A stretch of DNA of 20,000 bases from an uncultured virus (IMG/VR IMGVR_UViG_3300033150_001690) (IMGVR_UViG_3300033150_001690), one strand, 5' to 3'; counted from the stretch's first letter, positions 1,017 to 18,735 are shown. Translations and numbers: made by a program. The notes: generated from the sequence alone by a model not told the origin.

Positions 1017-1331
1017 ATGAATAACGATAAGATATTAGAAGAAATTAAAGCATGGTTAGGAAACAGACTAATACCTAAAGAAGATGCAGATCTTCTTCTT
1101 GACCTGGTCATTCAGTATGGGAATGAGAAGGAACACGAAGGAGAACTTATTGGAGAAGAACGTGGGTATGAAGAAGGATATGAAGAAGGATATGGAGTAG
1201 GTTATAGTAAAGGAAGAGAAGAAGGTATTACTGAAGGAAGAGATCAAGTAATATCAGAAATAGAATATGATCCTCTTATTTCTTTCGAAGATAAACGAAG
1301 TGTCTTACGAAGATTTGGAATATTAGTTTAA
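1017..1331 (+). CDS. hypothetical protein with GxxxG (GYEEG-type) repeat helix
   Basis: GELIGEERGYEEGYEEGYGVGYSKGREEGITEG; GGAG upstream. Confidence 0.8.
   Translation: MNNDKILEEIKAWLGNRLIPKEDADLLLDLVIQYGNEKEHEGELIGEERGYEEGYEEGYGVGYSKGREEGITEGRDQVISEIEYDPLISFEDKRSVLRRFGILV
1100..1110. repeat. dispersed palindrome TGACCWGGTCA, copy 1
   Basis: TGACCTGGTCA, read as D-L-V in ORF 1017..1331. Confidence 0.9.
1167..1214 (+). repeat. 12-bp coding tandem repeat
   Basis: TATGAAGAAGGA x2, then degenerate TATGGAGTAGGT and TATAGTAAAGGA. Confidence 0.75.
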
Positions 1332-1346
1332 GGAGGAAGAAATAAA

Positions 1347-1535
1347 ATGCGAATATATGAAGAACTACCCTGTGGATGTCTGGTCTCTAGAGAAGATCAA
1401 GCTATGATACCTTGTTGTTATCCAGAAGTGGGTCAACGACCGTCTAAACTTCATTTAAGATGTATGGAGTTATTCTTCAAAGAAGGAAAGTCAGTAGAAG
1501 AGATTAAACAAATTGTGAAAGAAAGGAAGGTTTAA
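1347..1535 (+). CDS. small Cys-rich hypothetical protein
   Basis: LPCGC...PCC...HLRC; AAGGAGG RBS. Confidence 0.75.
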   Translation: MRIYEELPCGCLVSREDQAMIPCCYPEVGQRPSKLHLRCMELFFKEGKSVEEIKQIVKERKV

Positions 1536-1538
1536 CGA

Positions 1539-1733
1539 ATGAAGATCCTTTCTGAAGAAGAGAAGAATTGTATTGAGATCGCAATAGATAAATTTAGATT
1601 TTATAAATCTCTTCTTAAGGCCCATCTAGATACTCTTACTTGTTATTGTAAGACCTGTAAAGAGAAGTCATTTGAGGCCTGTAGTGATTGTGATGTTTAT
1701 AAATATCTTAACAAAATTCTTAAGGAGTTCTAA
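1539..1733 (+). CDS. small CxxC-CxxC protein, paralog A
   Basis: AID...LTCYCKTCK...CSDC...KY; aligns by eye with the next ORF. Confidence 0.8.
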   Translation: MKILSEEEKNCIEIAIDKFRFYKSLLKAHLDTLTCYCKTCKEKSFEACSDCDVYKYLNKILKEF

Positions 1734-1735
1734 GA

Positions 1736-1942
1736 ATGAAGAGACCCAAACTAACTAAAGATACGGAGACAGGAATTAAGAACGCTATAGATGAGTATCT
1801 TCTTTCTAGAAGAGTATTAGAGATCTGGTTAGCTATTCTTACTTCTATTTGTGGGAGATGTAAACTGTCTTCTAAATCCTGTATAGATTGTAAAATTGGG
1901 AAATATAAAGATAAACTTGTGGAGATCCTTGACAATGAGTAA
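1736..1942 (+). CDS. small CxxC-CxxC protein, paralog B
   Basis: AID...LTSICGRCK...CIDC...KY; AAGGAG RBS. Confidence 0.8.
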   Translation: MKRPKLTKDTETGIKNAIDEYLLSRRVLEIWLAILTSICGRCKLSSKSCIDCKIGKYKDKLVEILDNE

Positions 1943-2141
1943 GAAGAAAATGATCAAAGGATCTATTCCTGTAGAAGAAGTTAAGAAGAGTATTAGTATA
2001 CTTCAAGAGAAGATCAAAGAACTCAAAGAAGATCTTGAAAAGGCTAAGGAATTAGAAGAAAAAATACAGATTCTACATCTTTTACAAATTTATGAGAGAG
2101 ACCTTACCTTATTTCAGGGTCTTTTAAAGGAGATTAACTAA
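1935..2141 (+). CDS. small coiled-coil protein
   Basis: ORF track 1896..2141; ATG 1935 after GGAG is the more likely start; heptad L/I-E/K pattern. Confidence 0.7.
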   Translation: MSKKKMIKGSIPVEEVKKSISILQEKIKELKEDLEKAKELEEKIQILHLLQIYERDLTLFQGLLKEIN

Positions 2142-2142
2142 G

Positions 2143-2244
2143 ATCTTCGGGCAGAAAGGATATGGAAGAAGTTACATGATACCGAACTTCAACCATACAA
2201 AGAACTTTTGGACCCAACTTCTTCCATATCCCTGTAAAGAAGAT
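2143..2244 (+). ncRNA. intergenic structured RNA: perfect 16-bp stem closed by a bulge-helix-loop-like motif
   Basis: GGATATGGAAGAAGTT (2158-2173) pairs with AACTTCTTCCATATCC (2216-2231); flanked by GCAG-AAA / CTGT-AAA and ATCTTC / GAAGAT. Confidence 0.6.
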
Positions 2245-2624
2245 TGGGAGGAGTAAAAATACCTCTTAATTGTATCTTATGTGGAAGAAAATATCTGAAG
2301 AAGGACTGGAGAGATCATTTAAGGAGAGATCATAGAATACCTGAAAAATTTATTGATAAGTATAAGTTCTTCGTTATAAGAAGAAGTGATACTAACATTC
2401 CTGTTATAGAAGACAGTAAATGTCCTTCCTGTGGGTCAACTATTTCTCCTAAGATATTATATTGGAGACAAGATGGACCCGAAGAAGAGGTAAGTAAAGC
2501 AAGAAGGTTATATCATCTTCCTCTTCTTCTCACTGGATACTGTCCTAATTGTGGTCAGTTAGTCTTCATACGTAAAGTTTATTTGATTAAAGAAGGTGAC
2601 CAGGTCACAGGTGAAAAGCAATGA
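2244..2624 (+). CDS. C2H2-like zinc finger plus Zn-ribbon protein
   Basis: CILC-x11-H-x4-H, then CPSC...CPNC; true start may be ATA 2259 after GGAGGAG. Confidence 0.8.
   Translation: MGGVKIPLNCILCGRKYLKKDWRDHLRRDHRIPEKFIDKYKFFVIRRSDTNIPVIEDSKCPSCGSTISPKILYWRQDGPEEEVSKARRLYHLPLLLTGYCPNCGQLVFIRKVYLIKEGDQVTGEKQ
2597..2607. repeat. dispersed palindrome TGACCWGGTCA, copy 2
   Basis: GTGACCAGGTCAC (13-bp symmetry), read as D-Q-V. Confidence 0.9.
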
Positions 2625-2764
2625 GAACAGAAGAAGAGATAAGAAAGAAGTTAGATACTCTTCGTAGAATGAGAAGATATGAGTTTAGTAGATGGAAGGG
2701 AGTACTATTTGACCAGAAGATTAGAGCATTAGAATGGGTCCTAGAGGAGTTGGAGGACCTATGA
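2621..2764 (+). CDS. 47-aa protein MRTEEEIRKKLDTLRR...IRALEWVLEELEDL
   Basis: Translated by hand; ATGA overlaps at both ends, GGTGA RBS; below the ORF-track cutoff. Confidence 0.75.
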   Translation: MRTEEEIRKKLDTLRRMRRYEFSRWKGVLFDQKIRALEWVLEELEDL

Positions 2765-2985
2765 TCCCTAGATGTCCTGTATGTAAACACCCATTAGAAG
2801 AAGTTAGGGAAGAATATAGATCTGTTTCTACATACAAATATTCTTCTAATGATCAAGGATATGACGTAATTAAAGATGAAGAAAACTTTGTTTTAGTATG
2901 TCCTTATTGTGGTTCTGTTCTTCCTAATAAAGTAGCTGAGAAGATTATTCCTAAACTTCCACTTCCTTCTTCTATTAATCTCTAA
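2761..2985 (+). CDS. Zn-ribbon protein
   Basis: CPVC...CPYC; ATG 2761 after GGAGG (track starts at 2734). Confidence 0.8.
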   Translation: MIPRCPVCKHPLEEVREEYRSVSTYKYSSNDQGYDVIKDEENFVLVCPYCGSVLPNKVAEKIIPKLPLPSSINL

Positions 2986-2996
2986 ATGAGGAGAAT

Positions 2997-3385: not shown

Positions 3386-3400
3386 AGGAGGTGAGAATGA

Positions 3401-3541
3401 ATGAACAAAATAGTGATTCCCTTAGAAGAGCTCCTAAGAGTAGTTTGGAAGAAACATAATGGTGAGATGACAGATGAAGATGTGGAAGAATGGTTCGAGA
3501 GAAAGACATCTGCTTCTTCAAATAAGGAGGAAGAAGATTGA
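3401..3541 (+). CDS. 46-aa protein MNKIVIPLEELLRVVWKKH...NKEEED
   Basis: Translated by hand; AAGGAGGTGA RBS; stop overlaps the next TTG. Confidence 0.7.
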   Translation: MNKIVIPLEELLRVVWKKHNGEMTDEDVEEWFERKTSASSNKEEED

Positions 3542-4097: not shown

Positions 4098-4100
4098 AAC

Positions 4101-4445
4101 ATGTCTAAGAATTGGAAGAGAAGATTTAAGAGACTTCATAAACGATTTATAAAAGAAATGACCAGTATTCTAGAGTCTTCTAAGCTTCTAAGTGAAGAGA
4201 AACTTCTACAAGTAATTGGGACCTGGAATTTAGATCTATCTGAGGTCTACAATTTTCTAGTAAGTGAAGAGAAGAAGAAAAAGAGATTAACAGAAGGAGT
4301 TAAAGAGGCTAAGAATAATAAACAAGAGTCTTCTAATAACGAAGAACTGAAGAGGGCAACTTCTACTTCATCTTATTATGGATACTCCTATGTTGTATAT
4401 CCTTCCACTAAGAAAATAAGTGAAGTGGAGAAGGATTTAGATTGA
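4101..4445 (+). CDS. hypothetical protein, basic N-terminus, S/T/Y-rich C-terminal part
   Basis: ORF track; AGGAG RBS. Confidence 0.75.
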   Translation: MSKNWKRRFKRLHKRFIKEMTSILESSKLLSEEKLLQVIGTWNLDLSEVYNFLVSEEKKKKRLTEGVKEAKNNKQESSNNEELKRATSTSSYYGYSYVVYPSTKKISEVEKDLD

Positions 4446-4627
4446 GTAAGATAGAAGAATTAAAAAAATATGTTCTTCAGTTGAGAAATAAAACAATAAC
4501 TGATAAAGAGATCGCCCAAGTAATGAAATTAATTAATGAAGCATTAGACGAAACATATACTTCAGGTTATAGTCAAGGATCTTATGAAGGATACGAAGAA
4601 GGATACCATGCTAGATATGAGAGTTAG
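4442..4627 (+). CDS. small protein with C-terminal GxxxG repeats
   Basis: YTSGYSQGSYEGYEEGY; coupled TTGA start. Confidence 0.7.
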   Translation: MSKIEELKKYVLQLRNKTITDKEIAQVMKLINEALDETYTSGYSQGSYEGYEEGYHARYES

Positions 4628-4719: not shown

Positions 4720-5616
4720 ATGACGATTTATATTCTAACTAATGTGACCTCTTCATTATATAATAAACCTACAGGTCTAAAACTAGCAGAACTAGGAGGG
4801 TTTACTCCAATTAGACCTAGTGACCTGGTCAACCTTCATCCTGAGAGAGGAGATGTATTAATACGATATGGTATTTCTTCTTATCCCAATAAAGACCTAG
4901 AGTTTACCATAGGTTGGGTCTTTAATAAAGCAGATGATATCAGGAAGGCTTCTAATAAACTAATAGCTTCTAGAATCATGTATACTCATTCTATTGATAC
5001 TCCTAAGATATGGACCAACAAAGATCTAATAACAGAAGATGATCTTCCTGTTTTAGGAAGAGATCAGTATCATTCCAGAGGATCTGATATTGTCTTCATA
5101 GATACCATGGAGAAGTTAAGAAGAAGTCATAAAGACTATTACTCCAAATTTATACCTTCAATAGCAGAGTATAGACTTCATGTGTTTAAAGGAGAGCCAA
5201 TTAGATTAAGTAAGAAGATCCCTACTGAAGAAGAGAGTATTATTCATAACTTTGAGAATGGCTATAGATTTATGGATAGATGGGGGAGAGAAGAGGGAGA
5301 TCTAGAACTAGAAACTAATGTAGTAATACCTGCTGGTCTAAGGGCTATAGAGGTCTTTAACTTAGATTTTGGAGCAGTTGATATTCTAATATCTGAAGGG
5401 AAAACTCCATATATATTGGAGGTTAATACTGCTCCTAGATTAAATAAATATGGAAGACAATTATATGTTTACTACTTCAGGTCTAAGTGTATGAGTGAAG
5501 ATGATGACCCAGGGAAGTATGCTTATACTAATTATTCTAGATTAAGATTAAATGAAGGACCACTAAGTAATGGTCTACCTATAACGTTTAGAGATATTGT
5601 AAAAAGAAGGAGGTGA
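4720..5616 (+). CDS. ATP-grasp amide/peptide ligase (RimK/LysX-like fold)
   Basis: N...ASNK, LPVLGR, EYRLHVF, LDFGAVDIL and YILEVNTAP motifs, including the metal-binding D and ExN. Confidence 0.9.
   Translation: MTIYILTNVTSSLYNKPTGLKLAELGGFTPIRPSDLVNLHPERGDVLIRYGISSYPNKDLEFTIGWVFNKADDIRKASNKLIASRIMYTHSIDTPKIWTNKDLITEDDLPVLGRDQYHSRGSDIVFIDTMEKLRRSHKDYYSKFIPSIAEYRLHVFKGEPIRLSKKIPTEEESIIHNFENGYRFMDRWGREEGDLELETNVVIPAGLRAIEVFNLDFGAVDILISEGKTPYILEVNTAPRLNKYGRQLYVYYFRSKCMSEDDDPGKYAYTNYSRLRLNEGPLSNGLPITFRDIVKRRR
4821..4831. repeat. dispersed palindrome TGACCWGGTCA, copy 3
   Basis: TGACCTGGTCA, read as D-L-V in the ATP-grasp gene. Confidence 0.9.
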
Positions 5617-5620
5617 AGAA

Positions 5621-5809
5621 TTGGAAGAAGAAGACATGAAGTTCTTCTTTACATTCTTTCTATTGATTCTTTTATGAATCTTCAACTTATTAGGAGAAGT
5701 ATCTAAACTAACAGAAAATACAGTTCATCAAGTAATTGCTATAATAGGATCAACTATTTGTATTATTGGTCTTGTTCTAGCATACATAGGAGACAGAATA
5801 TTCTCTTAG
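5621..5809 (+). pseudogene. two-helix membrane protein ORF interrupted by in-frame TGA at 5675-5677
   Basis: TTG after GGAGGTGA; MEEEDMKFFFTFFLLILL*IFNLLGEVSKLTENTVHQVIAIIGSTICIIGLVLAYIGDRIFS*. Confidence 0.6.
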
Positions 5810-5816
5810 TCTTCCT

Positions 5817-5858
5817 TCCTTGGAATCCTGAATGAGGAGTACCTCTTCAGGACAAGGA
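5817..5858 (+). promoter_or_regulatory. intergenic hairpin overlapping the RBS of the next gene
   Basis: TCCTTG-gaa-TCCTGAA-t-GAGG-agta-CCTC-TTCAGGA-CAAGGA (17 bp, two bulges). Confidence 0.65.
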
Positions 5859-5873
5859 GAGTGAAGAAGAAAT

Positions 5874-6080
5874 ATGAAAATATATTGTAAAATAGAAGAT
5901 GTTTCTATGGATCCAGAAGGGAATATAGTGTTGTTCTTTAGTAAAGAAAAAGAGACAACTAGAGAAGTTACAATATCTTTATTGAAGAATTGGATAGGTC
6001 AAGAAGTTATTATCACAATATCTCCTTTGGTAAGAAGACATGACCAGGTCACGGAGGATATAGGAATTGAAGGTGTATAA
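5874..6080 (+). CDS. small beta-rich hypothetical protein
   Basis: ORF track; overlaps the start of the ligase gene. Confidence 0.7.
   Translation: MKIYCKIEDVSMDPEGNIVLFFSKEKETTREVTISLLKNWIGQEVIITISPLVRRHDQVTEDIGIEGV
6041..6051. repeat. dispersed palindrome TGACCWGGTCA, copy 4
   Basis: TGACCAGGTCA, read as D-Q-V; just upstream of the ligase RBS. Confidence 0.9.
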
Positions 6081-7428
6081 ACAAGGAGTAGAACTAGAAG
6101 GATTTGTAGTAGAAGAAGATGCTACACCACTAGTGAAGGATCATAATCTCCATGCTGAAATGACCGATCTCTTCAAACATCGAATCTTTAATAGATATTA
6201 CTACGATGATAGTAAGCCAGAGTTTCCTTCTAATCCATATAAATCTGTAGGAGGTCTAGCTAATCATCTTTCTTCAGTGATATCTGGAGCAACAGATCTA
6301 GCTAAGAGTAAGAATGTAAACTATATATTAACAGGATGCTTCCCATTCTGGCAGGACTTCGCTTCAGGTCATATCCACACATCTCTAGTAGATATGAAGG
6401 AAGATGCCTGGAAGGAGATGAAGAGGAAGTTATATAACGCACAACCTATGATAGCTCTTCTATCTGCTAATTCTCCACTAATGAAGGGAGTGTTTAAAGC
6501 TAGTGATGTTAGACTCTCCTTCTCTTCTTGGAGTAGATTTACTGATTATGATAGAGATACTTCTGATCACTATATGGCATTAGCCAAAGGAGAAGGAGGA
6601 GCTACTCTGGAGTGTAGAATACCTTCTTCATCTTCTCTATATCAGATACTTGGTATAGCAATATTCATTAGAATATTGTTAGAAGACGAAGATACTACTC
6701 TTCCTATATTCTATACTAGAGAGATCTTTGATAGGGTAACTAAATATGGATCAGAAACACTAGTTCCTGTTGGTCTTCCTAAAGGAGTGACCTATCACGG
6801 AGTAAAACTGAAGAAGGCACATGTTAGAATAACTGATCTATGGAGGTTGTACTATAAAGAAAACTATGATCTCTTCAAGGAGAAGTTATCAAACTGTAAG
6901 CCTAGAATTCAGGAAGGAGTATTTAAGTTCTACGATCTTATAGCAAATGGTCTAACAGTATCTGATCTTGTATTGGATTATTGGAACTCTCTTCGTAATA
7001 AAGGAGATATTGTTAAAACATTACAACGTTTAACAGAAGATACCTATAACTATAAATCTACTATACAGGACATTCTTCCTATTCCTAAGAGGAAGTATAT
7101 TCCTCCTCTTCCAAAGAGAATGACTATTGAAGAGTTTAAGGAGTTAGTTAATAGTCTTCAAGTGAAAGAACTAACACCCGTTGAAGTAGATGATATATTG
7201 AAGTTGATCTTTAGCACTCGTATAAGGACTTTTGAAATGTTTAAAGTTATATCAGACATATCTTCTCAGGGGTATTCTATTGCAAGATTACATAGAGATC
7301 TTCTTAGAGAACTAAAATCCTTCGATATTATTAAAGAGAAGAGAAATCCTGATAGAGTAATTATTCCAGGGAAGAACTTCCCAATATTTGTTCAACTATT
7401 AGAGGAGAGTGAGTTATTTAACCAATGA
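6067..7428 (+). CDS. COOH-NH2 ligase, glutamate-cysteine ligase family 2 (GCS2/YbdK-like, glutamine-synthetase fold), with C-terminal extension
   Basis: GVELEG, EFPSNP, GHIHTS, ALLSANSP and LECRIP motifs in the canonical order. Confidence 0.85.
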   Translation: MKVYKQGVELEGFVVEEDATPLVKDHNLHAEMTDLFKHRIFNRYYYDDSKPEFPSNPYKSVGGLANHLSSVISGATDLAKSKNVNYILTGCFPFWQDFASGHIHTSLVDMKEDAWKEMKRKLYNAQPMIALLSANSPLMKGVFKASDVRLSFSSWSRFTDYDRDTSDHYMALAKGEGGATLECRIPSSSSLYQILGIAIFIRILLEDEDTTLPIFYTREIFDRVTKYGSETLVPVGLPKGVTYHGVKLKKAHVRITDLWRLYYKENYDLFKEKLSNCKPRIQEGVFKFYDLIANGLTVSDLVLDYWNSLRNKGDIVKTLQRLTEDTYNYKSTIQDILPIPKRKYIPPLPKRMTIEEFKELVNSLQVKELTPVEVDDILKLIFSTRIRTFEMFKVISDISSQGYSIARLHRDLLRELKSFDIIKEKRNPDRVIIPGKNFPIFVQLLEESELFNQ

Positions 7429-8417
7429 TCTCTCTTAAAGATCTTACGGAAGCTATTAGAGAAGTAAACAAATCACCATTTCCTACTGAAGTAATCTATC
7501 CAGGATCTAAGAAAGCTCCTATTCTTCTAACAGATTCATTACTAAGCACTAAGGTCTTGGGATATCTTCTAGGGAAAAATACTGAGAGACCTGTATTAAA
7601 AAGTATTGAAGTTCCTAATGTTTCTAATCGCTTGTTTATAGGAACTCATACTACCAGAAGATATGGAGTATCAGTATATTCTAATGATCTTAGAATAACT
7701 GTTCTTCTAAGTAAAGCGTTTAAGAAGAATGGAGTGAAACTCATTCCAGATACAGGTCATCATGAATATGGTCCAAAATTCTTTACTTATCTTTTCATAG
7801 GAGAAAGTTTCTTCTATTCACTAGATAAGCTAAACAGGGTGTTTGAAATACTAGTGAAGTTCTTCAAAGATCTATTGTTTGAAGACAGTCTTCCTGGGAA
7901 GTGTAGGTTTTGTGGAAATAATTCGTTGGTCTACCCTAATGATTTGTGTCAGTATCATCTGAAGCATGTTCCATTTCAGGAGTTAAAGAACTTCTATAAC
8001 ACATTGAAGATGGATACTTCTCTTGTAGGTATGTTAAAATCAGATGAAGAAGTAAATAGAATACTAATGGGTCTAAAGAAGTTTACATGGAAGACTAAGA
8101 AAGAAGTAGAGAAGTGTATAGATTGTGGGAAGTCTCTAGAATGGAATATGGGAATGCATGATGTTTGTTTATGTTATTCCTGTGATAAGAAGTATGACTG
8201 GTCTTTCTTCAGGACAGATTATTATAATGGTCTGGTCTTATGGAAAGACTTCAATTCTGATCCTAAGATAAGAAAGAGATATTTGAGAAGAAATATAGGA
8301 AGACAATCTTCTAATTCACATCTTCTGACTTATTCATCCTTCTCTCAACCTGTTTATTATATTAGAGAAGGGACTTCTCTTACTTCTACTATTTGGTCTT
8401 CTTCAACTTCAACGTAA
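7425..8417 (+). CDS. uncharacterised protein of the ligase cluster with two Cys-rich Zn-binding motifs and an S/T-rich tail
   Basis: CRFC...CQYH and CIDC...CLCYSC; ATGA-coupled to the ligase. Confidence 0.8.
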   Translation: MISLKDLTEAIREVNKSPFPTEVIYPGSKKAPILLTDSLLSTKVLGYLLGKNTERPVLKSIEVPNVSNRLFIGTHTTRRYGVSVYSNDLRITVLLSKAFKKNGVKLIPDTGHHEYGPKFFTYLFIGESFFYSLDKLNRVFEILVKFFKDLLFEDSLPGKCRFCGNNSLVYPNDLCQYHLKHVPFQELKNFYNTLKMDTSLVGMLKSDEEVNRILMGLKKFTWKTKKEVEKCIDCGKSLEWNMGMHDVCLCYSCDKKYDWSFFRTDYYNGLVLWKDFNSDPKIRKRYLRRNIGRQSSNSHLLTYSSFSQPVYYIREGTSLTSTIWSSSTST

Positions 8418-8429
8418 GGAGGATAAAGA

Positions 8430-9605
8430 ATGTGTGGTATAACCTCGTGTTATAATGTAGAAAATGCTTCAGAGACCATTCTAAACATGATACTAGCACA
8501 AGACCATAGAGGTAAAGATGCTACAGGAATAGCCTTCATAGAGAATGGAGAAATAAAGATCCATAAGAAAGCACTATCTCCAGAAGTATATGTTAAACGG
8601 TTTGGAGATAATATTAAGAAAACAGTGAAGTCTTCAATTATAATAGGTCATAACAGAGCAGCTTCTAGCAACTATAAGGAGAAGGATCAAGATAAAGAAG
8701 CACATCCATTTATAGCAGAAGATGGATCATTTGCTTTAGTCCACAATGGAACTCTAGGGTATAGATATGAGATCTTAGATACTTTTCTAGATCTGATAGG
8801 TCATAAACGATCTTCTGGAGTAGACACTGAGATATTTGTTCATATATTAGAAGAACTTCTTCAGAAATATCCTAGAGAAGAAGCTATGAAGAGATTCTAT
8901 ACTATCTCTGATGGCAATATATTAATACTCTTCAAAGATGGAGTATTATATGGAATACCTAATGGATCCTTCTATCTTCTAAAAGGAGACAATTGTGTAT
9001 ATATTGCTTCTGAACCAGGGACCTTTAAAGTTCTTCTAAATAAGAATATCAAGGAAGACCTTAAGATTCTTAAACCTAAGAAAGAAGGAACAATGGTCAA
9101 ACTATGGAAGGAAGGTGACCAGGTCAAGGTCCATATTTGGGGAGAGTGGGAAGAGATACCGTTTAAGATAGGAGACTGGGTCTACAATAGAACAACTTCC
9201 TGTGACTTCTGTGATAGAACAGGAGTTCCATGTGAATCGTTTATTCCTAAAGGGTCTAAGAAGGCATATGATAGATGTTTAGAGTGCTATAAGAAGGGAG
9301 TGACCAAGCCAAGGTATACTACTACTTCTTCTACTACACTATATCCTTCATATAGAAGAAGGGAGACATTATGGGGATATCAGTATCAATCTCCTTCTTC
9401 TCCAATAAAAGAAATAGCAGAGACTAAAAAGAAGGAGAAGAAGGATAATACTGGAGTAGCTATGTGTGCTGTTTGTAAGAAGCCTATACCACTAAATAAA
9501 GTGATCTACTGCACTAGATGTGGAAGATTCTTCTGTGAAGAACACTTCAAAGACCATAAATGTGCAGAGGTGAAGGACACCTTCTACTGGTCTTATGTTT
9601 ATTAG
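8430..9605 (+). CDS. class II (Ntn) glutamine amidotransferase with C-terminal Zn-finger domains
   Basis: N-terminal MCGI, HRGKDATG, GHNRAAS, AHPF, HNGTL, VDTE; CDFC...CLEC and AN1-like CAVC-x11-CTRC-x4-CEEH-x3-HKC. Confidence 0.92.
   Translation: MCGITSCYNVENASETILNMILAQDHRGKDATGIAFIENGEIKIHKKALSPEVYVKRFGDNIKKTVKSSIIIGHNRAASSNYKEKDQDKEAHPFIAEDGSFALVHNGTLGYRYEILDTFLDLIGHKRSSGVDTEIFVHILEELLQKYPREEAMKRFYTISDGNILILFKDGVLYGIPNGSFYLLKGDNCVYIASEPGTFKVLLNKNIKEDLKILKPKKEGTMVKLWKEGDQVKVHIWGEWEEIPFKIGDWVYNRTTSCDFCDRTGVPCESFIPKGSKKAYDRCLECYKKGVTKPRYTTTSSTTLYPSYRRRETLWGYQYQSPSSPIKEIAETKKKEKKDNTGVAMCAVCKKPIPLNKVIYCTRCGRFFCEEHFKDHKCAEVKDTFYWSYVY
9116..9126. repeat. dispersed palindrome TGACCWGGTCA, copy 5
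   Basis: TGACCAGGTCA, read as D-Q-V in the amidotransferase. Confidence 0.9.
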
Positions 9606-9611
9606 GAGAAG

Positions 9612-10553
9612 ATGAGTATGAAATATTTGGTTAATCTTCGTTCTACATTCTCTTCAGGATATTATGGAGACTTCAGGGATTATTTAATAGAACAATGGAG
9701 TAAGAACTACCCTTCAGCTTATATCAGAGGAGATAAGATCCAGTTCATGGAAGACAACTTTATAGTGGAGAATAAAGCAGTATATCCTGAGAATTGTGTT
9801 ATCTTCAACAACTATGCTCATAGTGCGGATTACTTAGAAGTAATAAAAGATCTAGGATATGTAGTAGATGTCTATCCTTCTTCTGTAGATCTAGCAGATA
9901 ACAAGTATGCTCTAATGAAGCATTTGGGATATTACTTCATAGTCCCTAGACTTCTGATCAACTCTTCTTCAAAAGGAGACTATGTTTTAGGATATCATTC
10001 TTCAGGTCTGTCAATTAAGAGTAAAGAAGATATTTGGAGTTCTGGAGAAAATTTAATAGGAGATCTAAATTGGAATGAAGACATTCTTCCTTTGGTAGAT
10101 GTCTATACCTTCTTAGGATATTCGGTAAATTACTGTTATTTGTTCCTTCAGAAGAATGGGAGTCTAATAGTTTCTTCTACTCAAAACAACATTAAACGCT
10201 TAGAACGCTTCAGTAGATATCGTGGTAATCAGTATGATCTTGAAGGTCCAAATAAGAAAGAGAAGGAATTAGTGAAGTTATTCTTCCAAGAAATAGACAT
10301 TGATACAGATGAAGTAGAAGATATGGCAGAAGAAGTATCTTCATTATTAATGTTGGGATCAGGTGAAGTATTAATAGCTCCATTTGAAGAGAATATAGTA
10401 GTAGATGTGATCTATACACACTTTCCACTCTTCCGCTTCTTTCTCCGAGAGAAGGCATATAGACAATTCATGTACTTCTTTACTAGAAGAATCTTAGAAG
10501 AGAACTCCTCTCCATGGTCTGCTAGAAAGAGAATATTTCAAATAGAGGAGTAA
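9612..10553 (+). CDS. divergent, probably inactive ATP-grasp-fold protein
   Basis: PSSVDLADNKYALMKHL...VPRLLI and MAEEVSSLLMLGSGEVLI...IVVDVIYTHFP follow the RimK layout, but the conserved D and ExN are missing. Confidence 0.55.
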   Translation: MSMKYLVNLRSTFSSGYYGDFRDYLIEQWSKNYPSAYIRGDKIQFMEDNFIVENKAVYPENCVIFNNYAHSADYLEVIKDLGYVVDVYPSSVDLADNKYALMKHLGYYFIVPRLLINSSSKGDYVLGYHSSGLSIKSKEDIWSSGENLIGDLNWNEDILPLVDVYTFLGYSVNYCYLFLQKNGSLIVSSTQNNIKRLERFSRYRGNQYDLEGPNKKEKELVKLFFQEIDIDTDEVEDMAEEVSSLLMLGSGEVLIAPFEENIVVDVIYTHFPLFRFFLREKAYRQFMYFFTRRILEENSSPWSARKRIFQIEE

Positions 10554-10559
10554 TCAAAA

Positions 10560-10934
10560 ATGGTTAAATGCAGGACCTGTAGATGGAGAGTAAAAGTTAA
10601 TCAGGATACATACTATTGTAATGCTAGAGGACTTCTTCTTAGAGAGGAAGAAATGGATGAACTTAGATATTGTGCTTCTTATGATCCTTCTCCTTTCAGT
10701 GACATAGAACAGCAACTATATAACTATCTTCTGGAGATAGGAACAGGAGTAGCTATTGCTTCTCTTCCTCCTAGATGGAGAGGAGCGATAACTAAGTTGA
10801 AGAGACTAGGAATAGTAGACACTTATTTTGAATGGGTCAGAGTATCCTCTAGACCAAATATAGAAGAAGGAGAATCTTTTAGTTATAAAAGAGTAAAAAT
10901 GATCAAATTAAATGAGGATGGTTATTACTTATGA
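10560..10934 (+). CDS. Cys-cluster plus putative winged-helix protein
   Basis: CRTC...C...C N-terminus; LYNYLL...GAITKLKRLGIV resembles wHTH. Confidence 0.6.
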   Translation: MVKCRTCRWRVKVNQDTYYCNARGLLLREEEMDELRYCASYDPSPFSDIEQQLYNYLLEIGTGVAIASLPPRWRGAITKLKRLGIVDTYFEWVRVSSRPNIEEGESFSYKRVKMIKLNEDGYYL

Positions 10935-12023: not shown

Positions 12024-12063
12024 TATTGGACACATCTTCAGAAGGACTACATTGTTTATCACA

Positions 12064-12077
12064 GAAACCTTTTATTT
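12064..12077 (+). promoter_or_regulatory. possible archaeal BRE/TATA promoter
   Basis: GAAACC-TTTTATTT in the gap upstream of the AbrB-like/ATPase genes. Confidence 0.3.
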
Positions 12078-12132
12078 CTCATTATTTTCTAAATATAGCC
12101 ATTAAACTAAAGACAGGAAATAGAGCATCAAT

Positions 12133-12143
12133 TGACCAGGTCA
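12133..12143. repeat. dispersed palindrome TGACCWGGTCA, copy 6
   Basis: TGACCAGGTCA in the 12024-12190 gap, followed by clustered GACC/GGTC half-sites. Confidence 0.9.
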
Positions 12144-12190
12144 TCTTTCTTCAGACTTGGTAAGACCAAAATAATTGGTCAAAATTGGCC

Positions 12191-12379
12191 ATGACCAAAG
12201 AAGATTTAAATACTATTAAAGCAATTATCTCTAAAGAAGGTATTCTAATGAAGCTATTAAGACTTAAGAAGGGAGAAGCAGCATATCTCTCTATACCTGA
12301 AGAATGCACTATAAGCACTCAAGCCTGTTCTGTAAAGAATAGTAAGGGAGAGAAACTTATTCTAATAAGGGTCTTATAA
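12191..12379 (+). CDS. small protein, possibly an AbrB/MazE-like swapped-hairpin DNA-binding protein
   Basis: KLLRLKKGEAAYLSIPEE resembles the AbrB 'k-G-s-x-x-tIP-e' motif; ATG 12191 or TTG 12185. Confidence 0.45.
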   Translation: MTKEDLNTIKAIISKEGILMKLLRLKKGEAAYLSIPEECTISTQACSVKNSKGEKLILIRVL

Positions 12380-12380
12380 A

Positions 12381-13100
12381 ATGGAGACAGGTCCCTTAGT
12401 AAATAAAGAGTTCTATAACTACATTCTCCCTTCTAAGAGAGTAATCAAGTATTCTCCTAGAGTAAAGTATCCAACTAACAATGTTATCTTCAGAAATATT
12501 GTTCTATATGGCTATCAAGGATCAGGTAAGACCTCTTCAGTTAGAAGAATAGTCTATGAAGCAGTGAAGAAATATGGTCAAAGTAATGTTAATGCTAGAA
12601 TGAGTGAAGATGGTGATCTAGGGGCATTACTTAGATGGGGTCTAAGACCTGTTTTAGTAAATATTCTATTTAGTGATAACACCACATTAAGAAAGATCCC
12701 TAGAGAAGAACTAATGAGATACTTTAGGATAAGACACATTTATAGAGAGAGATTTGGTCTAGACAATGGATATATATTGAGTTTAATAGCTCTTCATAGA
12801 TTTCATAGTATTCCTCCAGAACTTAGAACTACCATAGATGGTCTATTGATCAAAGACTCTTCTATGAATCCATATGATAGATCAGTGTTGAAGAGATTCA
12901 TAGGAGAAGACAATTTACGTCTTTTAGAGACCCTAAGTATAGAGAGGGAGAGATATCCAGACCTGAAGAGTATAGGGATTTTTGTAGGCAGGACATTCTC
13001 CGGTCTGGTCTCTCTCCCTCTCCCTAGGAAAGATTTTTTAAGACCCGTATATTCAACCGAAGAGATAGTGATGGATCTGAAAAGGATCCTGAACATATAA
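12381..13100 (+). CDS. P-loop ATPase, FtsK/HerA superfamily-like (A32/Zot-type layout)
   Basis: Walker A GYQGSGKT, Walker B-like ILFSDN, LIALHRFHSIPPELRTTID resembling the hhhQ...IP..R motif. Confidence 0.7.
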   Translation: METGPLVNKEFYNYILPSKRVIKYSPRVKYPTNNVIFRNIVLYGYQGSGKTSSVRRIVYEAVKKYGQSNVNARMSEDGDLGALLRWGLRPVLVNILFSDNTTLRKIPREELMRYFRIRHIYRERFGLDNGYILSLIALHRFHSIPPELRTTIDGLLIKDSSMNPYDRSVLKRFIGEDNLRLLETLSIERERYPDLKSIGIFVGRTFSGLVSLPLPRKDFLRPVYSTEEIVMDLKRILNI

Positions 13101-13124: not shown

Positions 13125-13265
13125 ATGTTTGAACCGATCTATGACTTCCTGTACAATGTAGGTCTGGGTCTAGTATGGTTTGGAACAGGTCTAGGTCTGG
13201 CAGGATTAATGGCTGGAGCAGTTAAGGCTCTGAATTGGATCTCAGAGAAAGTCTTTAGCAAATAG
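13125..13265 (+). CDS. 46-aa Gly-rich single-pass membrane protein MFEPIYDFLYNVGLGLVWFGTGLGLAGLMAGAVKALNWISEKVFSK
   Basis: Translated by hand; GAGGTGA RBS; acidic N-terminus, hydrophobic core, basic amphipathic C-terminus. Confidence 0.8.
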   Translation: MFEPIYDFLYNVGLGLVWFGTGLGLAGLMAGAVKALNWISEKVFSK

Positions 13266-13334: not shown

Positions 13335-13586
13335 ATGTTAGAAATGAAAGAAGAAGGAAAGACCTATAGACAGATAATAATAGAGGAGATACAGCGAATA
13401 GAGGATAGGTGTAAAAAACTACCTAAAGAAGAACAGAAGTATTGGAAGAAGGTAATTAATACTTTAATATACGATCTTCATGAATATGAGAAACAGAAGA
13501 GAATATCTCCTGTTAGTGTAGAATATGAAGACTTCTTTGATAGAGTATGGAGATTAATAGAGGAAGCATTCTTTGGAGGTGAATAA
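13335..13586 (+). CDS. hypothetical helical protein
   Basis: ORF track. Confidence 0.7.
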   Translation: MLEMKEEGKTYRQIIIEEIQRIEDRCKKLPKEEQKYWKKVINTLIYDLHEYEKQKRISPVSVEYEDFFDRVWRLIEEAFFGGE

Positions 13587-13848: not shown

Positions 13849-14116
13849 AGAAGAAGATCGAAGAATGAGTGATTCTAGACAGAAGTTATTATCTGCTATG
13901 ATTCTTAGTTTAGGAAGTTATATAGAACAAGAAGCAAAGAAGAAGGATACTTGGAGAGATATACCATTTGGTCAAGCATATGCTCATCTAAGACATGAAA
14001 TAGAAGAAATAAGAAGAAGTAAGACTAAGACCCAACAACTTCACAATTGTATGGATGCCTGTTCTTTATCAGCTATTCTAGTTGCTAAACTTATGTTTGA
14101 AGATAAGGAGGAATGA
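13826..14116 (+). CDS. small all-alpha protein, possibly MazG-like NTP pyrophosphohydrolase fold
   Basis: TWRD...HLRHEIEEI...NCMDAC resembles the ExxE...D pattern; weak. Confidence 0.45.
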   Translation: MSQMKINKEEDRRMSDSRQKLLSAMILSLGSYIEQEAKKKDTWRDIPFGQAYAHLRHEIEEIRRSKTKTQQLHNCMDACSLSAILVAKLMFEDKEE

Positions 14117-14553
14117 TGTTGAAACAGAAGATGGATAGAAGAAAGATGGATGATCTTTTAGAAGAATTTCCTGATTTATTTCCTAAATATTCTCCTTTGT
14201 ACATTCGTGTTAAGTTTCCGTTTACTATTGACTGTGAAGATGGTTGGTATGATCTTCTAAGAGATCTATGTCTTTCTATTAGAGAAGAACTTAAGAAAGA
14301 TCCTGATCTTAAGAAGTATTTTACAGTTGACCAGGTCAAGCAAAAATTTGGTGGTCTAAGGTTTTACGTTTCTTGTACTAACAAGAGAGTATTAGATCTA
14401 ATTAATGAGGCAGAAGAGAAGAGCTATACTATATGTGAGAAATGTGGATCTCCTGGTAAATTTAGAACGGATCTACCTTGGATCCAGACACTCTGCGATA
14501 AATGTTATAAGAAGAAGTTAAAAGAAATAAGAAGAATGGAGGAGATAAAGTAA
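14113..14553 (+). CDS. conserved phage-type hypothetical protein with C-terminal Zn ribbon
   Basis: DGWYDLL...QVKQKFGGLRFY...SYTICEKCG...WIQTLCDKC, a signature I recognise from uncharacterised phage proteins. Confidence 0.8.
   Translation: MMLKQKMDRRKMDDLLEEFPDLFPKYSPLYIRVKFPFTIDCEDGWYDLLRDLCLSIREELKKDPDLKKYFTVDQVKQKFGGLRFYVSCTNKRVLDLINEAEEKSYTICEKCGSPGKFRTDLPWIQTLCDKCYKKKLKEIRRMEEIK
14328..14338. repeat. dispersed palindrome TGACCWGGTCA, copy 7
   Basis: TTGACCAGGTCAA, read as D-Q-V. Confidence 0.9.
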
Positions 14554-14693: not shown

Positions 14694-14695
14694 GA

Positions 14696-15376
14696 GTGAA
14701 GAAGTTGAGTGACCAGGTCATCTCTTCATTTATACTCATTGACGTCCATGAGCCTGAAATTATCAAGATAAAGATCAAAGAACTAGGAGTACCATTTCAG
14801 GTCAGACCATTAGAAGTAGGAGACTATATTGTAGATAGAGTAATAATAGAAAGAAAGGAGATACATGATCTCTTCTCTAGTTTAACTTCAGGGAGATTAT
14901 GGAATCAACTTTATAAAATAAAGGAGACAGGTCTTAAAGGATATCTTGTTGTAATAGGAGAGATCCCTACATGGGATTATAGAAGAAAGAGACCTGTCTC
15001 TAAAAAGAAGTATCAATATTACTTCTCTACTCTAAGAAACATTAGAAGAATAGCATATCTCTCCTATGGAGTAGGATTTGAACATCTAAAGACCACAGAA
15101 GACTTCTTTCAATTTATAGTAGATGTGTGGAACAAAACAGGAAGGAAGGTCTCTTATGCTCCTGTGTTGAAGAAGGGAAGTGACCTGGTCACTATAAAAT
15201 CTAATATATTATCTTGTATACCTGGAATAGGAAGAAAGATAGCAGATGAACTAGCTAAAAAGTATAAGATTAGTGATCTGGTCACTCTTCCAATTAATGA
15301 ATTATCTAACGTAAAAATTAGAGGAAAGAAGTTAAGGTCTAGGGCTAATAAGATTAAGTGGGCATTAACAAGTTAG
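14696..15376 (+). CDS. ERCC4-domain (XPF/Mus81/Hef-type) structure-specific endonuclease with HhH
   Basis: IDVHE, LEVGDY, IERKxxxD, GRLWNQL; HhH LSCIPGIGRKIA. Confidence 0.92.
   Translation: MKKLSDQVISSFILIDVHEPEIIKIKIKELGVPFQVRPLEVGDYIVDRVIIERKEIHDLFSSLTSGRLWNQLYKIKETGLKGYLVVIGEIPTWDYRRKRPVSKKKYQYYFSTLRNIRRIAYLSYGVGFEHLKTTEDFFQFIVDVWNKTGRKVSYAPVLKKGSDLVTIKSNILSCIPGIGRKIADELAKKYKISDLVTLPINELSNVKIRGKKLRSRANKIKWALTS
14710..14720. repeat. dispersed palindrome TGACCWGGTCA, copy 8
   Basis: TGACCAGGTCA, read as D-Q-V. Confidence 0.9.
15181..15191. repeat. dispersed palindrome TGACCWGGTCA, copy 9
   Basis: AGTGACCTGGTCACT (15-bp symmetry), D-L-V; one-mismatch copy TGATCTGGTCA at 15274-15284. Confidence 0.9.
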
Positions 15377-15387
15377 GAGGCGATATA

Positions 15388-15693: not shown

Positions 15694-15705
15694 GGAGGTG
15701 AAGAA

Positions 15706-15858: not shown

Positions 15859-15870
15859 GGAGGTGGATAA

Positions 15871-16107: not shown

Positions 16108-16118
16108 AAGGTGAAGGA

Positions 16119-16618: not shown

Positions 16619-16782
16619 AAAGACTATAGATCTCTTTGAAGGTATTAGGACATGTATGGTTTATAGTACCTGATTCTTCCCTTTTAACTATATATTTTTT
16701 GATCGTTATAAGTTCGATTCTTCATTCTTCCGAAGACATTTTATAGAAGTACTGAATAGTCTTCTCTTCCTGTTGATGATAC

Positions 16783-16977
16783 ATGAGAGAAACAGGCCTA
16801 GATTTATTAAATAAACGGGACTTAGAAATAATTCATATCTTATTAAAAGTAGTCTTCTTCTCTGAAGAACATCTTCCTGGTGACCTGGTCACTCTTTATT
16901 GGAAGGCTAAAGTAGACGAGTTAACTAATGAGATCTTATCTCTTGAAGAAATATATTCTAAGATTGGCCATAACTAA
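16783..16977 (+). CDS. small hypothetical protein
   Basis: ORF track; weak RBS. Confidence 0.55.
   Translation: MRETGLDLLNKRDLEIIHILLKVVFFSEEHLPGDLVTLYWKAKVDELTNEILSLEEIYSKIGHN
16881..16891. repeat. dispersed palindrome TGACCWGGTCA, copy 10
   Basis: GTGACCTGGTCAC, read as D-L-V. Confidence 0.9.
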
Positions 16978-16991
16978 GAAATATTTTTATA
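16978..16991 (+). promoter_or_regulatory. possible archaeal BRE/TATA promoter
   Basis: GAAATA-TTTTTATA about 50 nt upstream of ATG 17043. Confidence 0.4.
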
Positions 16992-17042
16992 CTTCTTCTG
17001 TGCGTTATATTGTAGTTAAAGAATAAGAAGGAGAATATAAAA

Positions 17043-17345
17043 ATGAAGTGTCCTAATTGTGGAAGAGAAGTTAAACATCCTACTAAAGTATGGAGAAAGT
17101 ATTATTATAAAGAAATAAAAGGGAAGAAGAAGACCATAGAAAAGATGGGTATATACAAAGAATTGTGTCCTTACTGTGGATGGACCCTTAAACAGAAGAA
17201 AATACCTGTTAAGACTTTTGAAGAGAAGGAGATTAAAACAGAGGATATCCTAGAACCTTATAGAAAGGCATTCAAGAGCATAGTGAAGGATCTTAGAGAG
17301 TACATTGACTATCTAGAAGAAGAATTTAGTTCTTTATGGGAGTAG
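17043..17345 (+). CDS. Zn-ribbon protein, Lys-rich
   Basis: MKCPNCG...CPYCG; AAGGAG RBS. Confidence 0.8.
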   Translation: MKCPNCGREVKHPTKVWRKYYYKEIKGKKKTIEKMGIYKELCPYCGWTLKQKKIPVKTFEEKEIKTEDILEPYRKAFKSIVKDLREYIDYLEEEFSSLWE

Positions 17346-17351
17346 AAGTAT

Positions 17352-18335
17352 TTGGATTTTGTTAGTATAGCAAATCATTTTCATAGACCGACTGATCTAT
17401 ATTCTAAACTAAAGAAACTAGAACCTTTTAGTCTCTCTTTTCACACAGACGCTGATGGGATTTATAGTGCTTCTCTACTGATGTCAGTGTTTCAGGTTAA
17501 AGAAGTAAAATGTCCTCCATTTAATGAGTATGAGACCCAAGTAGCAGTTGATCTTGGATATCCTAAGAAGAAGGACTGGTCAGGGGTAATAATAGACCAT
17601 CATTGGCTAGACTATCCTGAAGGAGTACTAAAGAATCCCAAGATAACCTGTGTATTAGATATTTGTCCTACAGGTCTGATTATATGGAAACATTTGAAGA
17701 ATTATATTCCTAAGAAGGACTGGTGGAAAGTAGTAGGATCTCTTACTGGAGATGGTCAACCTGAACTAGTACCAGATGAAATATGGGATGAATTTCCTAT
17801 ATTATTAGAAGAGAGAGGAGTATTAGGGAGAGGTCAATATAAAATATGGACCTCAGCATTTCCATTATTCTATTATCTATCTTCAGGAGTTAATGCTATA
17901 GCTAGACTAGGATTTCCTCTTCAGGCCTTAGATATTGTTAATCAAGCAGAAGGACCTTTAGATATTCTAGATCATCCCGAAGTAATAGACGCTGTTCAAA
18001 GAGTGAAGTCTGAAGAAGATAACATCTATAAGAGTAGACCTGTAGTGGAGACCATTAGAAATAGATATGTTATTATTAGAATAAAGACCAGTTCTCCAGC
18101 TATTAGTATGGCAGGTCTAATAGCTTCTAAGGTCTCTAACAATAACCCTGGTAAGACTATTATAGTTATGAATGAAAGTAATGGAGAGGTCAGTATTAGA
18201 GGAGTACAGGCCAGGTATGTTGCTAATAAATTAAATGCTTCAGGTTTTAAAGCAGGAGGTCATGCAGGTTTCTGTGGTAGTCATTTTGAAGAAGACGAGA
18301 TAGAAGACTTCATGCAGACTTTAAGGAAGTTGTAA
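17352..18335 (+). CDS. DHH/DHHA1 family phosphoesterase (RecJ/NrnA-like nuclease)
   Basis: HTDADG, VDLG, IIDHH, SIRG and GGH motifs. Confidence 0.9.
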   Translation: MDFVSIANHFHRPTDLYSKLKKLEPFSLSFHTDADGIYSASLLMSVFQVKEVKCPPFNEYETQVAVDLGYPKKKDWSGVIIDHHWLDYPEGVLKNPKITCVLDICPTGLIIWKHLKNYIPKKDWWKVVGSLTGDGQPELVPDEIWDEFPILLEERGVLGRGQYKIWTSAFPLFYYLSSGVNAIARLGFPLQALDIVNQAEGPLDILDHPEVIDAVQRVKSEEDNIYKSRPVVETIRNRYVIIRIKTSSPAISMAGLIASKVSNNNPGKTIIVMNESNGEVSIRGVQARYVANKLNASGFKAGGHAGFCGSHFEEDEIEDFMQTLRKL

Positions 18336-18337
18336 GT

Positions 18338-18562
18338 ATGAAGTTATCTCTTAGACAGAAACTAATAACATCCTCCTTTCTTCAAGGTCTAGGTCTGGGA
18401 GTATTAATTCATGACTATCTTCATGATATGTATGTCATTGGAGGGTATAAGGAAATATTATCTCTTCAGGGAGGATACTTTGGTATAGTGATCTTCCTTA
18501 TAGGTTGGATCATTATGTTTCCTATACTAATAAACAAACTTCCTAGGAGATGTGAAGAATGA
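18338..18562 (+). CDS. small membrane protein
   Basis: Two hydrophobic segments. Confidence 0.75.
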   Translation: MKLSLRQKLITSSFLQGLGLGVLIHDYLHDMYVIGGYKEILSLQGGYFGIVIFLIGWIIMFPILINKLPRRCEE

Positions 18563-18735
18563 CCTGGTCACTTAAGGTAGAATCGTTTGTATGGTGTCTA
18601 TATATAATGAAGGATCAATATATTGGGATCTTTAAGACCCCTGAAGATGCTCTGAGTTTTGCTAGAAGACACTATAGCAATATTCAGTATCATATAGAAC
18701 CTAAACCTGTGTTAACCTACAAAGGAGGAAGATAA
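18559..18735 (+). CDS. 58-aa hypothetical protein (MTWSLKVESF...YKGGR)
   Basis: Translated by hand; ATGA overlap, AGGAG RBS. Confidence 0.7.
   Translation: MTWSLKVESFVWCLYIMKDQYIGIFKTPEDALSFARRHYSNIQYHIEPKPVLTYKGGR
18560..18570. repeat. dispersed palindrome TGACCWGGTCA, copy 11
   Basis: TGACCTGGTCA at an ATGA gene junction: TGA stop of one gene, M-T-W-S start of the next. Confidence 0.9.

Follow-up and report, generated by a model that had tools for sequence, protein, structure and literature searches.

Why should a virus write the same 11-bp palindrome again and again through genes that have nothing in common? The question is raised by a 20,000-nucleotide stretch, hereafter the window, of the uncultured hydrothermal-vent virus IMGVR_UViG_3300033150_001690 (IMG/VR), a 77,175-bp metagenomic contig of which our analysis covers these 20 kb. 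The exact word, TGACCWGGTCA, is present in 11 exact copies and one copy with a single mismatch, or about once per 1.8 kb. We find it to be a real, strongly selected, virus-borne iterated palindrome, kin to HIP1 of cyanobacteria, the Cluster O repeats of mycobacteriophages and the KorB sites of plasmid RK2. As to what it does, we assign a probability of roughly 50% to the reading that a symmetric DNA-binding factor docks at the copies, its function calling for a large number of cis sites spread evenly.

All long open reading frames (ORFs) lie on the + strand of the window, which has 34% G+C and a strong skew of G over C. The copies are placed among them as follows:

1100–1110: copy TGACCTGGTCA, inside the ORF at 1017–1331, read L-D-L-V-I.
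2597–2607: copy TGACCAGGTCA with a 13-bp dyad (GTGACCAGGTCAC), close to the 3′ end of the ORF at 2244–2624 (residue 118 of 126), read G-D-Q-V-T; a small ORF at 2621–2764 has its ATG 14 bp downstream.
4821–4831: copy TGACCTGGTCA, in the ATP-grasp gene at 4720–5616, read S-D-L-V-N.
6041–6051: copy TGACCAGGTCA, in the hypervariable tail of the ORF at 5874–6080; 15 nt upstream of the TTG start (6067) of a gene for a 453-aa protein.
9116–9126: copy TGACCAGGTCA, in the glutamine amidotransferase gene at 8430–9605, read G-D-Q-V-K.
12133–12143: copy TGACCAGGTCA, the sole spacer copy, in the non-coding gap at 12024–12184; 41 nt upstream of the TTG start (12185) of the ORF at 12185–12379, behind which lies a P-loop ATPase gene.
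14328–14338: copy TGACCAGGTCA, in the ORF at 14113–14553, read V-D-Q-V-K.
14710–14720: copy TGACCAGGTCA, in codons 5–8 of the ERCC4/XPF-type nuclease gene at 14696–15376, read S-D-Q-V.
15181–15191: copy TGACCTGGTCA with a 15-bp dyad (AGTGACCTGGTCACT), in the ERCC4 gene, read S-D-L-V-T.
15274–15284: one-mismatch copy TGATCTGGTCA (GAT for GAC), in the ERCC4 gene, read S-D-L-V-T.
16881–16891: copy TGACCTGGTCA with a 13-bp dyad, in the ORF at 16783–16977, read G-D-L-V-T.
18560–18570: copy TGACCTGGTCA, at a gene junction where its TGA is the stop of the ORF at 18338–18562 and A plus TG is the start of the ORF at 18559–18735, read M-T-W-S.

Nine of the exact copies lie in ORFs, one at the stop/start junction and one in the spacer. 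These placements agree with the sequence-only reading that drew attention to the word, which had reported the 11 exact copies, the one-mismatch copy at 15274, the shared D-(L/Q)-V frame of nine copies, the junction and gap copies, and a central base that is always A or T (A in six exact copies, T in five). Its statement that symmetry extends to 13–15 bp in four copies stands if the near copy is counted; the exact copies alone include three with a dyad of at least 13 bp.

Every null model falls short of this count. Dinucleotide shuffles yielded a mean of 0.14 occurrences at up to one mismatch (largest 2), and 0 of 200 reached the 12 observed. Analytic Markov expectations for the exact word were 0.003 (order 0), 0.033 (order 3) and 0.47 (order 5), the last of which is inflated because the copies themselves feed the model. 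Set against the nine in-ORF copies, shuffling synonymous codons within genes gave a mean of 0.16 (largest 2 in 2000), shuffling them across genes 0.04, and shuffling codon order 0.004; these codon nulls use 42 + strand ORFs that we chose from a mechanical list, some of which may not be genes. A fifth-order Markov null and a codon-preserving null were among the tests proposed when the word was first noticed, and both leave it unexplained (0.47 expected vs 11 found, and a mean of 0.16 vs 9). Over base composition the excess is roughly 3000-fold, and no other 8- to 12-mer in the window is an extreme outlier. It is barely credible that the copies arose by chance, reflect composition or descend from one duplicated segment: the small size of the window is all that speaks for it, while the flanks of the copies have nothing in common except two weakly preferred positions and the genes that carry them are unrelated.

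The coding of the copies indicates what selection sees. D-(L/Q)-V is the reading of nine exact copies as well as of the near copy. The 42 ORFs hold 12 D-[L/Q]-V tripeptides in all: the exact word encodes nine, the near copy one, and other spellings the remaining two. The codons that the word requires account for 24% of Asp (GAC), 5% of Leu (CTG), 44% of Gln (CAG) and 13.5% of Val (GTC). The tripeptide itself is five-fold more frequent than expected (12 vs 2.4; 0 of 2000 amino-acid shuffles reach 12), and the full-context peptide, with the flanking requirement included, occurs 11 times against 0.76 expected, so that residues have been bent and not codons alone. All 11 exact copies have a T just ahead of the core and an A just behind it, two bases that fall in the neighboring codons. 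Two copies fall outside the D-L/Q-V frame, namely the spacer copy (12133) and the junction copy (18560, M-T-W-S). The uniformity of the frame needs no special explanation, because TGA closes one frame and natural opportunities for the third, [L/M/V]-T-[R/W]-S, are about 3.5 times rarer (0.22 vs 0.76), with a single use, at 18559. Codon spelling, tripeptide excess, out-of-frame copies and the relatives described below all agree with the initial proposal that the DNA word, rather than any peptide, is under selection, a conclusion we regard as strongly supported. The virus pays in rare codons and altered residues for one exact word, which argues that something important reads the DNA directly.

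The same coding copies could be taken for a signal at the level of RNA or translation, either a ribosome-slowing cluster of rare codons or an 11-nt self-complementary RNA element, since nine copies are coding and use rare codons, and all genes lie on one strand, so that each copy would be transcribed. We consider this very improbable, given that the fixed outer T and A sit in neighboring codons, that one copy lies in a spacer and one at a stop/start junction in another frame, and that in relatives the word seems to persist in a frame other than this one; as RNA, a 4-bp stem closing a 3-nt loop would also be unlikely to be stable, least of all in a thermophile.

Related sequences show how the sites persist. 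Homologs of the 453-aa protein were found in metagenomes only (17 matches, best 91% identity), one of them, at 42%, in a metagenome-assembled genome (MAG) source-labelled Ignisphaera. A metagenome scan returned 18 loci, and the 11-mer is present in only one of them, a 4.8-kb contig (L001) that is 91.7% identical to window positions 5879–10692. Both copies that can be tested there (6041 and 9116) are exact, in an alignment whose third codon positions differ at 252 of 1550. At copy 6041, 12 of the 30 flanking positions have changed whereas all 11 of the word are identical, and the L001 version is a perfect 13-mer. Whether relatives keep the synonymous positions fixed was a check proposed from the sequence alone; these two of two testable copies are unchanged in L001, and eight copies can be followed at the peptide level. 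Among close variants, defined as cluster members with about 75% protein identity or more, the copies compare as follows:

Copy 4821: S-D-L-V in 4 of 4 close variants (90% identity or more).
Copy 9116: G-D-Q-V in 3 of 3.
Copy 15181: D-L-V in 5 of 5.
Near copy 15274: D-L-V in 5 of 5.
Copy 18560: M-T-W-S in 4 of 4.
Copy 14710: DQV in 3 of 5, DQI in 2.
Copy 6041: DQV in 3, DLV in 1, DLT in 1, DVE in 1.
Copy 14328: DQV in 2 of 4, LTRS in 2 of 4.

The Q/L swap among the variants of copy 6041 corresponds to the A/T choice at the W position. At copy 14328, the ORF (14113–14553) encodes a 146-aa zinc-ribbon protein, which in two close relatives from different assemblies is 75 aa long, with a frameshift just upstream of the copy. 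These two proteins end in ...LELTRSSKNLVV, and their last ten residues (LTRSSKNLVV, followed by a stop) are the window DNA read one frame over. The simplest reading of these peptides is that the word survived an upstream frameshift in both relatives. The gene itself is either dispensable or split at the frameshift.

On these comparisons, which were made without control words, the sites are conserved overall, with turnover between close relatives. Farther away the tripeptide disappears: D-[LQ]-V stands at the site in 0 of 7 distant ATP-grasp homologs and 0 of 7 distant amidotransferase homologs, and copy 4821 sits in a segment that is variable and gapped among the seven ATP-grasp sequences. This variation suggests that the sites were created in this lineage, at places that tolerate them. 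Five hydrothermal-vent metagenomes have 5–11% of sampled words in common with the window, and contigs from four vent metagenomes are 80–99% alike to it, touching all 30 window bins. None of the 40 variants listed, of 2519, falls inside a copy, which we do not count as evidence.

The word is sharply bounded. Beside the 11 exact copies there is one with one mismatch and three with two mismatches, the latter at background level (mean 3.05 for up to two mismatches). When the 22 half-sites are folded together, two weakly informative positions appear outside the arms and none further out: G at position −6 in 11 of 22, and any base except T at position −7. The full form can be written (R)G-TGACC-W-GGTCA-C(Y), with an obligatory 11-bp core.

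A shifted form of the word is carried by a sister lineage, L003, a syntenic 14.1-kb contig with 21–64% protein identity. In it the 9-bp core GACCTGGTC occurs at 213, 9909 and 12588, none of them homologous in position to a window copy; 0.03 occurrences would be expected, and none of 200 shuffles gave three. The outer bases are A, A and G before the core and T, T and T after it, giving AGACCTGGTCT twice; two cores read D-L-V and one T-W-S. The core at 9909 lies 26 nt upstream of the start (9944) of a zinc-ribbon + winged-helix gene and is followed by further AGACC/TGACC half-sites. A change of outer bases on both sides fits a reader whose specificity drifts symmetrically. Four further relatives (L007, L008, L014 and L015, about 69 kb together) have no copy of the word. 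Palindromes with arms of 4–6 bp and a central gap of 0–4 bp never reach three occurrences at more than 15-fold excess in them, save a few AT-rich words with 4- or 5-bp arms in L014. Enrichment of CTTCTGGAG / CTCCAGAAG in L003 and L001 was also considered and set aside, being mostly a Pro-Glu-x codon string on the coding strand.

So compact and exact a form could also be the target of a methyltransferase or a restriction/modification-type enzyme, the copies serving as HIP1-like marks (for a methyl-reader, timing or self-recognition), perhaps with Vsr-like biased repair. Short perfect palindromes are what type II enzymes recognize, and this one has a W center, compact arms and hardly any degenerate copies; its core is CCWGG, it also contains ACCWGGT and GACNNNGTC, and its sole decayed copy, at 15274, is a C to T change in the outer C of CCWGG. 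The precedent of HIP1, as the cited accounts describe it, includes an embedded methylated CGATCG (PMC6604393) and selection with non-random spacing (PMC5861425). Set against this, searches of the window and of the fetched parts of its relatives turned up no gene for a methyltransferase, a Vsr protein or a restriction enzyme, CCWGG outside the motif is neither avoided nor enriched (15 vs about 10 expected from base composition, by our own arithmetic), and biased repair at a single position cannot give a roughly 3000-fold excess of an 11-mer. Moreover, we know of no type II system with a recognition site of 11–13 bp. On balance we judge this explanation unlikely. The window also departs from expectation at some shorter words: GATC occurs 140 times against 89.5 by a second-order Markov model (1.57-fold), GTAC and TGCA are at about half of expectation, and CGCG and GCGC are absent, with only 0.6 and 1.2 expected.

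The distribution of the copies is informative in its own right. The gaps between copies range from 382 to 3075 bp with a coefficient of variation of 0.53; random placement gives a value this low with P = 0.021, and leaves no gap above 3075 bp, ends included, with P = 0.015. The copies are spaced more evenly than chance (P about 0.02); the first description, of irregular spacing at 0.4–3.1 kb, is right as to the range but misses this evenness. Five of the 12 copies (2597, 6041, 12133, 14710 and 18560) lie within about −55 to +14 of a start codon, where we estimate that about 16% would be expected, and seven of the 12 are well inside ORFs. Gene junctions are cheap places for the word, because it contains TGA and ATGA. 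A promoter-element reading was rejected, as the distances from copy to next start show no constant offset.

Even coverage would also suit a process that needs a site every few kilobases, and the copies might be processing or drive sites for a nuclease, nickase, recombinase, primase or packaging enzyme, accumulated by biased transmission in the manner of uptake sequences and Chi. DNA bearing the word would be favored in replication, recombination, protection or packaging, without each copy having to benefit the virus. The proteome signature resembles that described in the cited work on uptake sequences (PMC2817400), with a five-fold tripeptide excess here, at variable positions. The window, moreover, encodes a RecJ-like DHH protein and an ERCC4/XPF-type nuclease, in whose gene lie the near copy and two of the exact ones. 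What makes us rate this as rather improbable is that the 15 insertion/deletion joints listed between the window and related contigs miss all copies, and that a palindrome cut on both strands would break the genome. Chi, uptake sequences and T5-type nick sites are, in addition, asymmetric.

We return to docking by a symmetric factor, leaving some probability for readings outside those weighed here. Each copy would be an independent recognition site in double-stranded DNA, most likely for a homodimeric factor encoded by the virus or, less likely, by its host. The site would span one helical turn, with two 5-bp arms (TGACC), a free A/T center and a weak preference for an outer G and then a base other than T. 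Selection would see to it that a site recurs along the DNA at intervals of roughly 3 kb or less, without fixing its position relative to genes, and new sites would arise where a compact genome can afford them, at junctions, in one spacer and in tolerant segments turned into D-L/Q-V. A need for many evenly spread cis sites makes a genome-level function most likely: a protein may nucleate at the sites and mark, bridge, compact or partition the viral DNA, with Noc, MatP, KorB and ParB as models, or, with lower probability, the bound sites may act as roadblocks that globally shut off the co-directional gene block.

Several points weigh against this reading. With half-site centers just 6 bp from each other and almost no tolerance of mismatches, the word looks as much like a target of restriction/modification enzymes as of helix-turn-helix regulators, if not more so. 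Copy 14710 is missing from two of five close variants and copy 6041 from two of six; conservation at synonymous positions is based on two copies, and the evenness of spacing on 11 points. Because 20 kb of a 77-kb contig were seen, calling the sites genome-wide is an extrapolation. Searches with Pfam, PHROGs and NCBIfam found no MatP, ParB, ribbon-helix-helix protein, methyltransferase or restriction enzyme in the window, and no ParB-family match appeared in the fetched parts of relatives either. Finally, the one clear DNA-binding fold in the window is present in motif-less relatives too:

10560–10934, + strand: zinc-ribbon + winged-helix protein, a candidate reader only, from a predicted model and fold matches.

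The model of this protein has a predicted local distance difference test score (pLDDT) of 83–87 over residues 50–90, and its best fold matches are all winged helices of PadR/MarR/TFE type, at E 0.06 or weaker. The family is small (22 representatives among 1.84 billion proteins). A tblastn search had made it look lineage-specific, a view we dropped on finding syntenic, fast-evolving homologs in every relative examined; with homologs in motif-less relatives, nothing ties the protein to the word. Two other candidates were discarded: the ORF at 13335–13586, picked by phyletic profiling as common to L003 only, has no DNA-binding signature, and the ORF at 3401–3541, which looked by eye like a ribbon-helix-helix protein, has no Pfam support.

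The remaining gene content suggests a large tailed double-stranded DNA virus, probably of a thermophilic archaeon. The archaeal part of this assignment is not secure; it draws on the short XPF type, archaeal zinc-ribbon matches below cut-offs and the one MAG label. Recognizable genes encode an ATP-grasp protein (phrog_2599, E 1e-28), a class II glutamine amidotransferase, a weakly matched COOH-NH2 ligase-like protein, the short ERCC4/XPF nuclease with a helix-hairpin-helix tail, a DHHA1/RecJ-like protein and many zinc-ribbon proteins; no tRNA and no Rfam family was found in the window. The block at 4720–10553 (ATP-grasp, a small ORF, the 453-aa ligase-like protein, a 330-aa protein, the class II amidotransferase with a zinc-ribbon tail and a 313-aa protein) resembles the phiEco32-type amidoligase cluster and is common to all relatives (L003, L007, L014 and L015). 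The P-loop protein at 12381–13100, which follows the spacer copy, shows 41–64% identity in the same four relatives. It has a classical Walker A motif and is AAA/nSTAND3/Zot/poxvirus-A32-like, not ParA-like; its clusters are mostly viral, most often Uroviricota, and no PDB relative was found by sequence. The flanking parts of L014, L015 and L007 carry an RNA-repair-like set (TROVE/Ro, several RNA ligases and RlaP) together with NAMPT, MazG, metallophosphatases, a radical SAM enzyme and an eRF1 domain-1 protein.

The window also holds repeats of other kinds. The ORFs at 1017–1331 and 4442–4627, both with weak FliH/Yae1-like matches, contain a repeat of 12-nt period (1152–1204 and 4565–4617) encoding (E)GYEEGY units. 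A 24-nt word, AGGTCTAGGTCTGG..., occurs at 13187–13210, 15335–15358 and 18385–18408 with 75–100% identity; two of its copies lie in small hydrophobic ORFs and read G-L-G-L-G, and we take it as a peptide-level repeat.

To see whether the palindrome occurs at comparable density elsewhere, we scanned for paired motifs, that is, two copies 445–475 bp apart. In 185,579 species genomes this gave 35 loci, at most one per record and several of them local tandem repeats, which is roughly chance level, and in IMG/VR it gave four unrelated loci of 42–71% G+C. No reference genome has a window-like density of the word; a host with at most one site per 10 kb, or an unsampled one, would be missed by such a scan. 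Relatives of the window were absent from the phage collection, and IMG/VR returned none by protein, by alignment or by the window's own 50-mer. A full-text literature search for the 11-mer, the 9-mer core and the 13-mer gave primers and similar strings only, none microbial among the matches listed, and we found no comparable report in the literature on iterated palindromes in viruses and archaeal viruses. The first of these results is consistent with the initial view that the motif belongs to no described system. A halovirus paper describes the opposite tendency, palindromes being purged, as viruses usually do to escape restriction (PMC7911831).

Tentatively, we suggest that a large, probably archaeal, vent virus may run its own chromosome-marking system, in which a dedicated symmetric reader recognizes an 11–13-bp word, placed in the genes about every 2 kb at a cost that can be measured in the proteins, either telling viral from host DNA or organizing the genome for compaction, partition or packaging, and in which word and reader co-evolve (TGACCWGGTCA here, AGACCWGGTCT in L003). 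If this is right, viruses would have their own equivalent of MatP/matS or Noc-type systems, and for the first time such a system would have been seen to reshape the proteome of a virus. No explanation has come for years for either HIP1 or the Cluster O repeats, in large part owing to big genomes or to sites that are mostly intergenic; the target here is small and sharp, and its signature of selection is unusually clean, with Q/L toggling at the center, survival of a frameshift and an island of identity in hypervariable flanks. Together with the shifted word in the sister lineage, it offers a handle on how large archaeal viruses organize or mark their genomes.

How, then, does the word compare with known systems? 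The uptake sequences of Pasteurellaceae and Neisseria roughly double the tripeptides they encode and sit at poorly conserved residues, according to the cited account (PMC2817400). The word likewise accumulates in coding regions, inflates tripeptides and falls at poorly conserved residues. Uptake sequences and Chi are asymmetric, orientation-biased and cellular, and the former are explained by bias of the uptake machinery, whereas here a perfect palindrome lies on a virus-like contig.

MatP belongs to enterobacteria and their kin. Its 13-bp site, matS, is given as GTGACRNYGTCAC (PMC6907758), and the extended form of our word, GTGAC-CWG-GTCAC, agrees with it in the outer 5 + 5 bases and in having a center of 3 bp. 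Both are dispersed sites largely within genes, and DNA organization rather than gene control is the role of matS and may be that of our word. The analogy with matS-type sites drawn in the sequence-only reading gains from this likeness to GTGAC-N3-GTCAC and loses at the center, which is C-W-G in 11 of 11 copies and does not follow the R-N-Y rule described for matS; the outer G/C is present in 11 of 22 half-sites. We ascribe the likeness to coincidence or to convergence on a sequence that suits a dimer.

The KorB OB operators of the IncP-1 plasmid RK2, and likewise ParB/parS and Noc sites, combine a near-invariant short palindrome in about a dozen copies with one dimeric protein and a genome-level role. 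Like them, the word is a short palindrome repeated over a mobile replicon, partly away from promoters. Unlike them, it is several times denser, most of its sites lie in genes, and its 20 kb hold no ParB-family gene.

HIP1 (GCGATCGC) is periodic as well as selected in the cyanobacteria described in the cited study (PMC5861425). Like HIP1, the word is a hyper-abundant in-gene palindrome, lying far above Markov and codon-aware expectation both in and outside genes, that neither codon preference nor peptide selection accounts for, and it is non-randomly spaced; for neither is a reader named in the sources cited here. HIP1 is conserved between related genomes beyond control words (PMC5861425), whereas our conservation is judged without them. 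HIP1 has 8 bp, belongs to a cellular chromosome, is 15- to 300-fold in excess and has single-mismatch variants that are also conserved; the present word has 11–13 bp, is viral, stands roughly 3000-fold above composition and has almost no near copies.

Closest in kind is the 17-bp dyad TGTTCGGNNNCCGAACA of Cluster O mycobacteriophages, for which the cited report gives 34 exact and three near copies in Corndog, with 7-bp invariant arms and a 3-bp free center, 14 of the 34 copies lying between ORFs and 10 more at the 5′ ends of genes (PMC4351075); Ryadel, a relative of Corndog, has a genome of 72.7 kb. Both are virus-wide palindromes (ours as seen in 20 kb) with strict arms, a free center, about one copy per 2 kb, no orientation bias and few degenerate copies (34 + 3 there, 11 + 1 here), and neither has a function assigned in the sources cited. 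The arms are 5 bp here vs 7 bp there, the center is 1 vs 3 bp, the sequences are unrelated, and the vent virus is probably archaeal. Cluster O sites lie mainly between genes or at their 5′ ends, whereas seven of our 12 copies are well inside ORFs, and nine of the 11 exact copies have been written into coding sequence by means of rare codons and altered residues.

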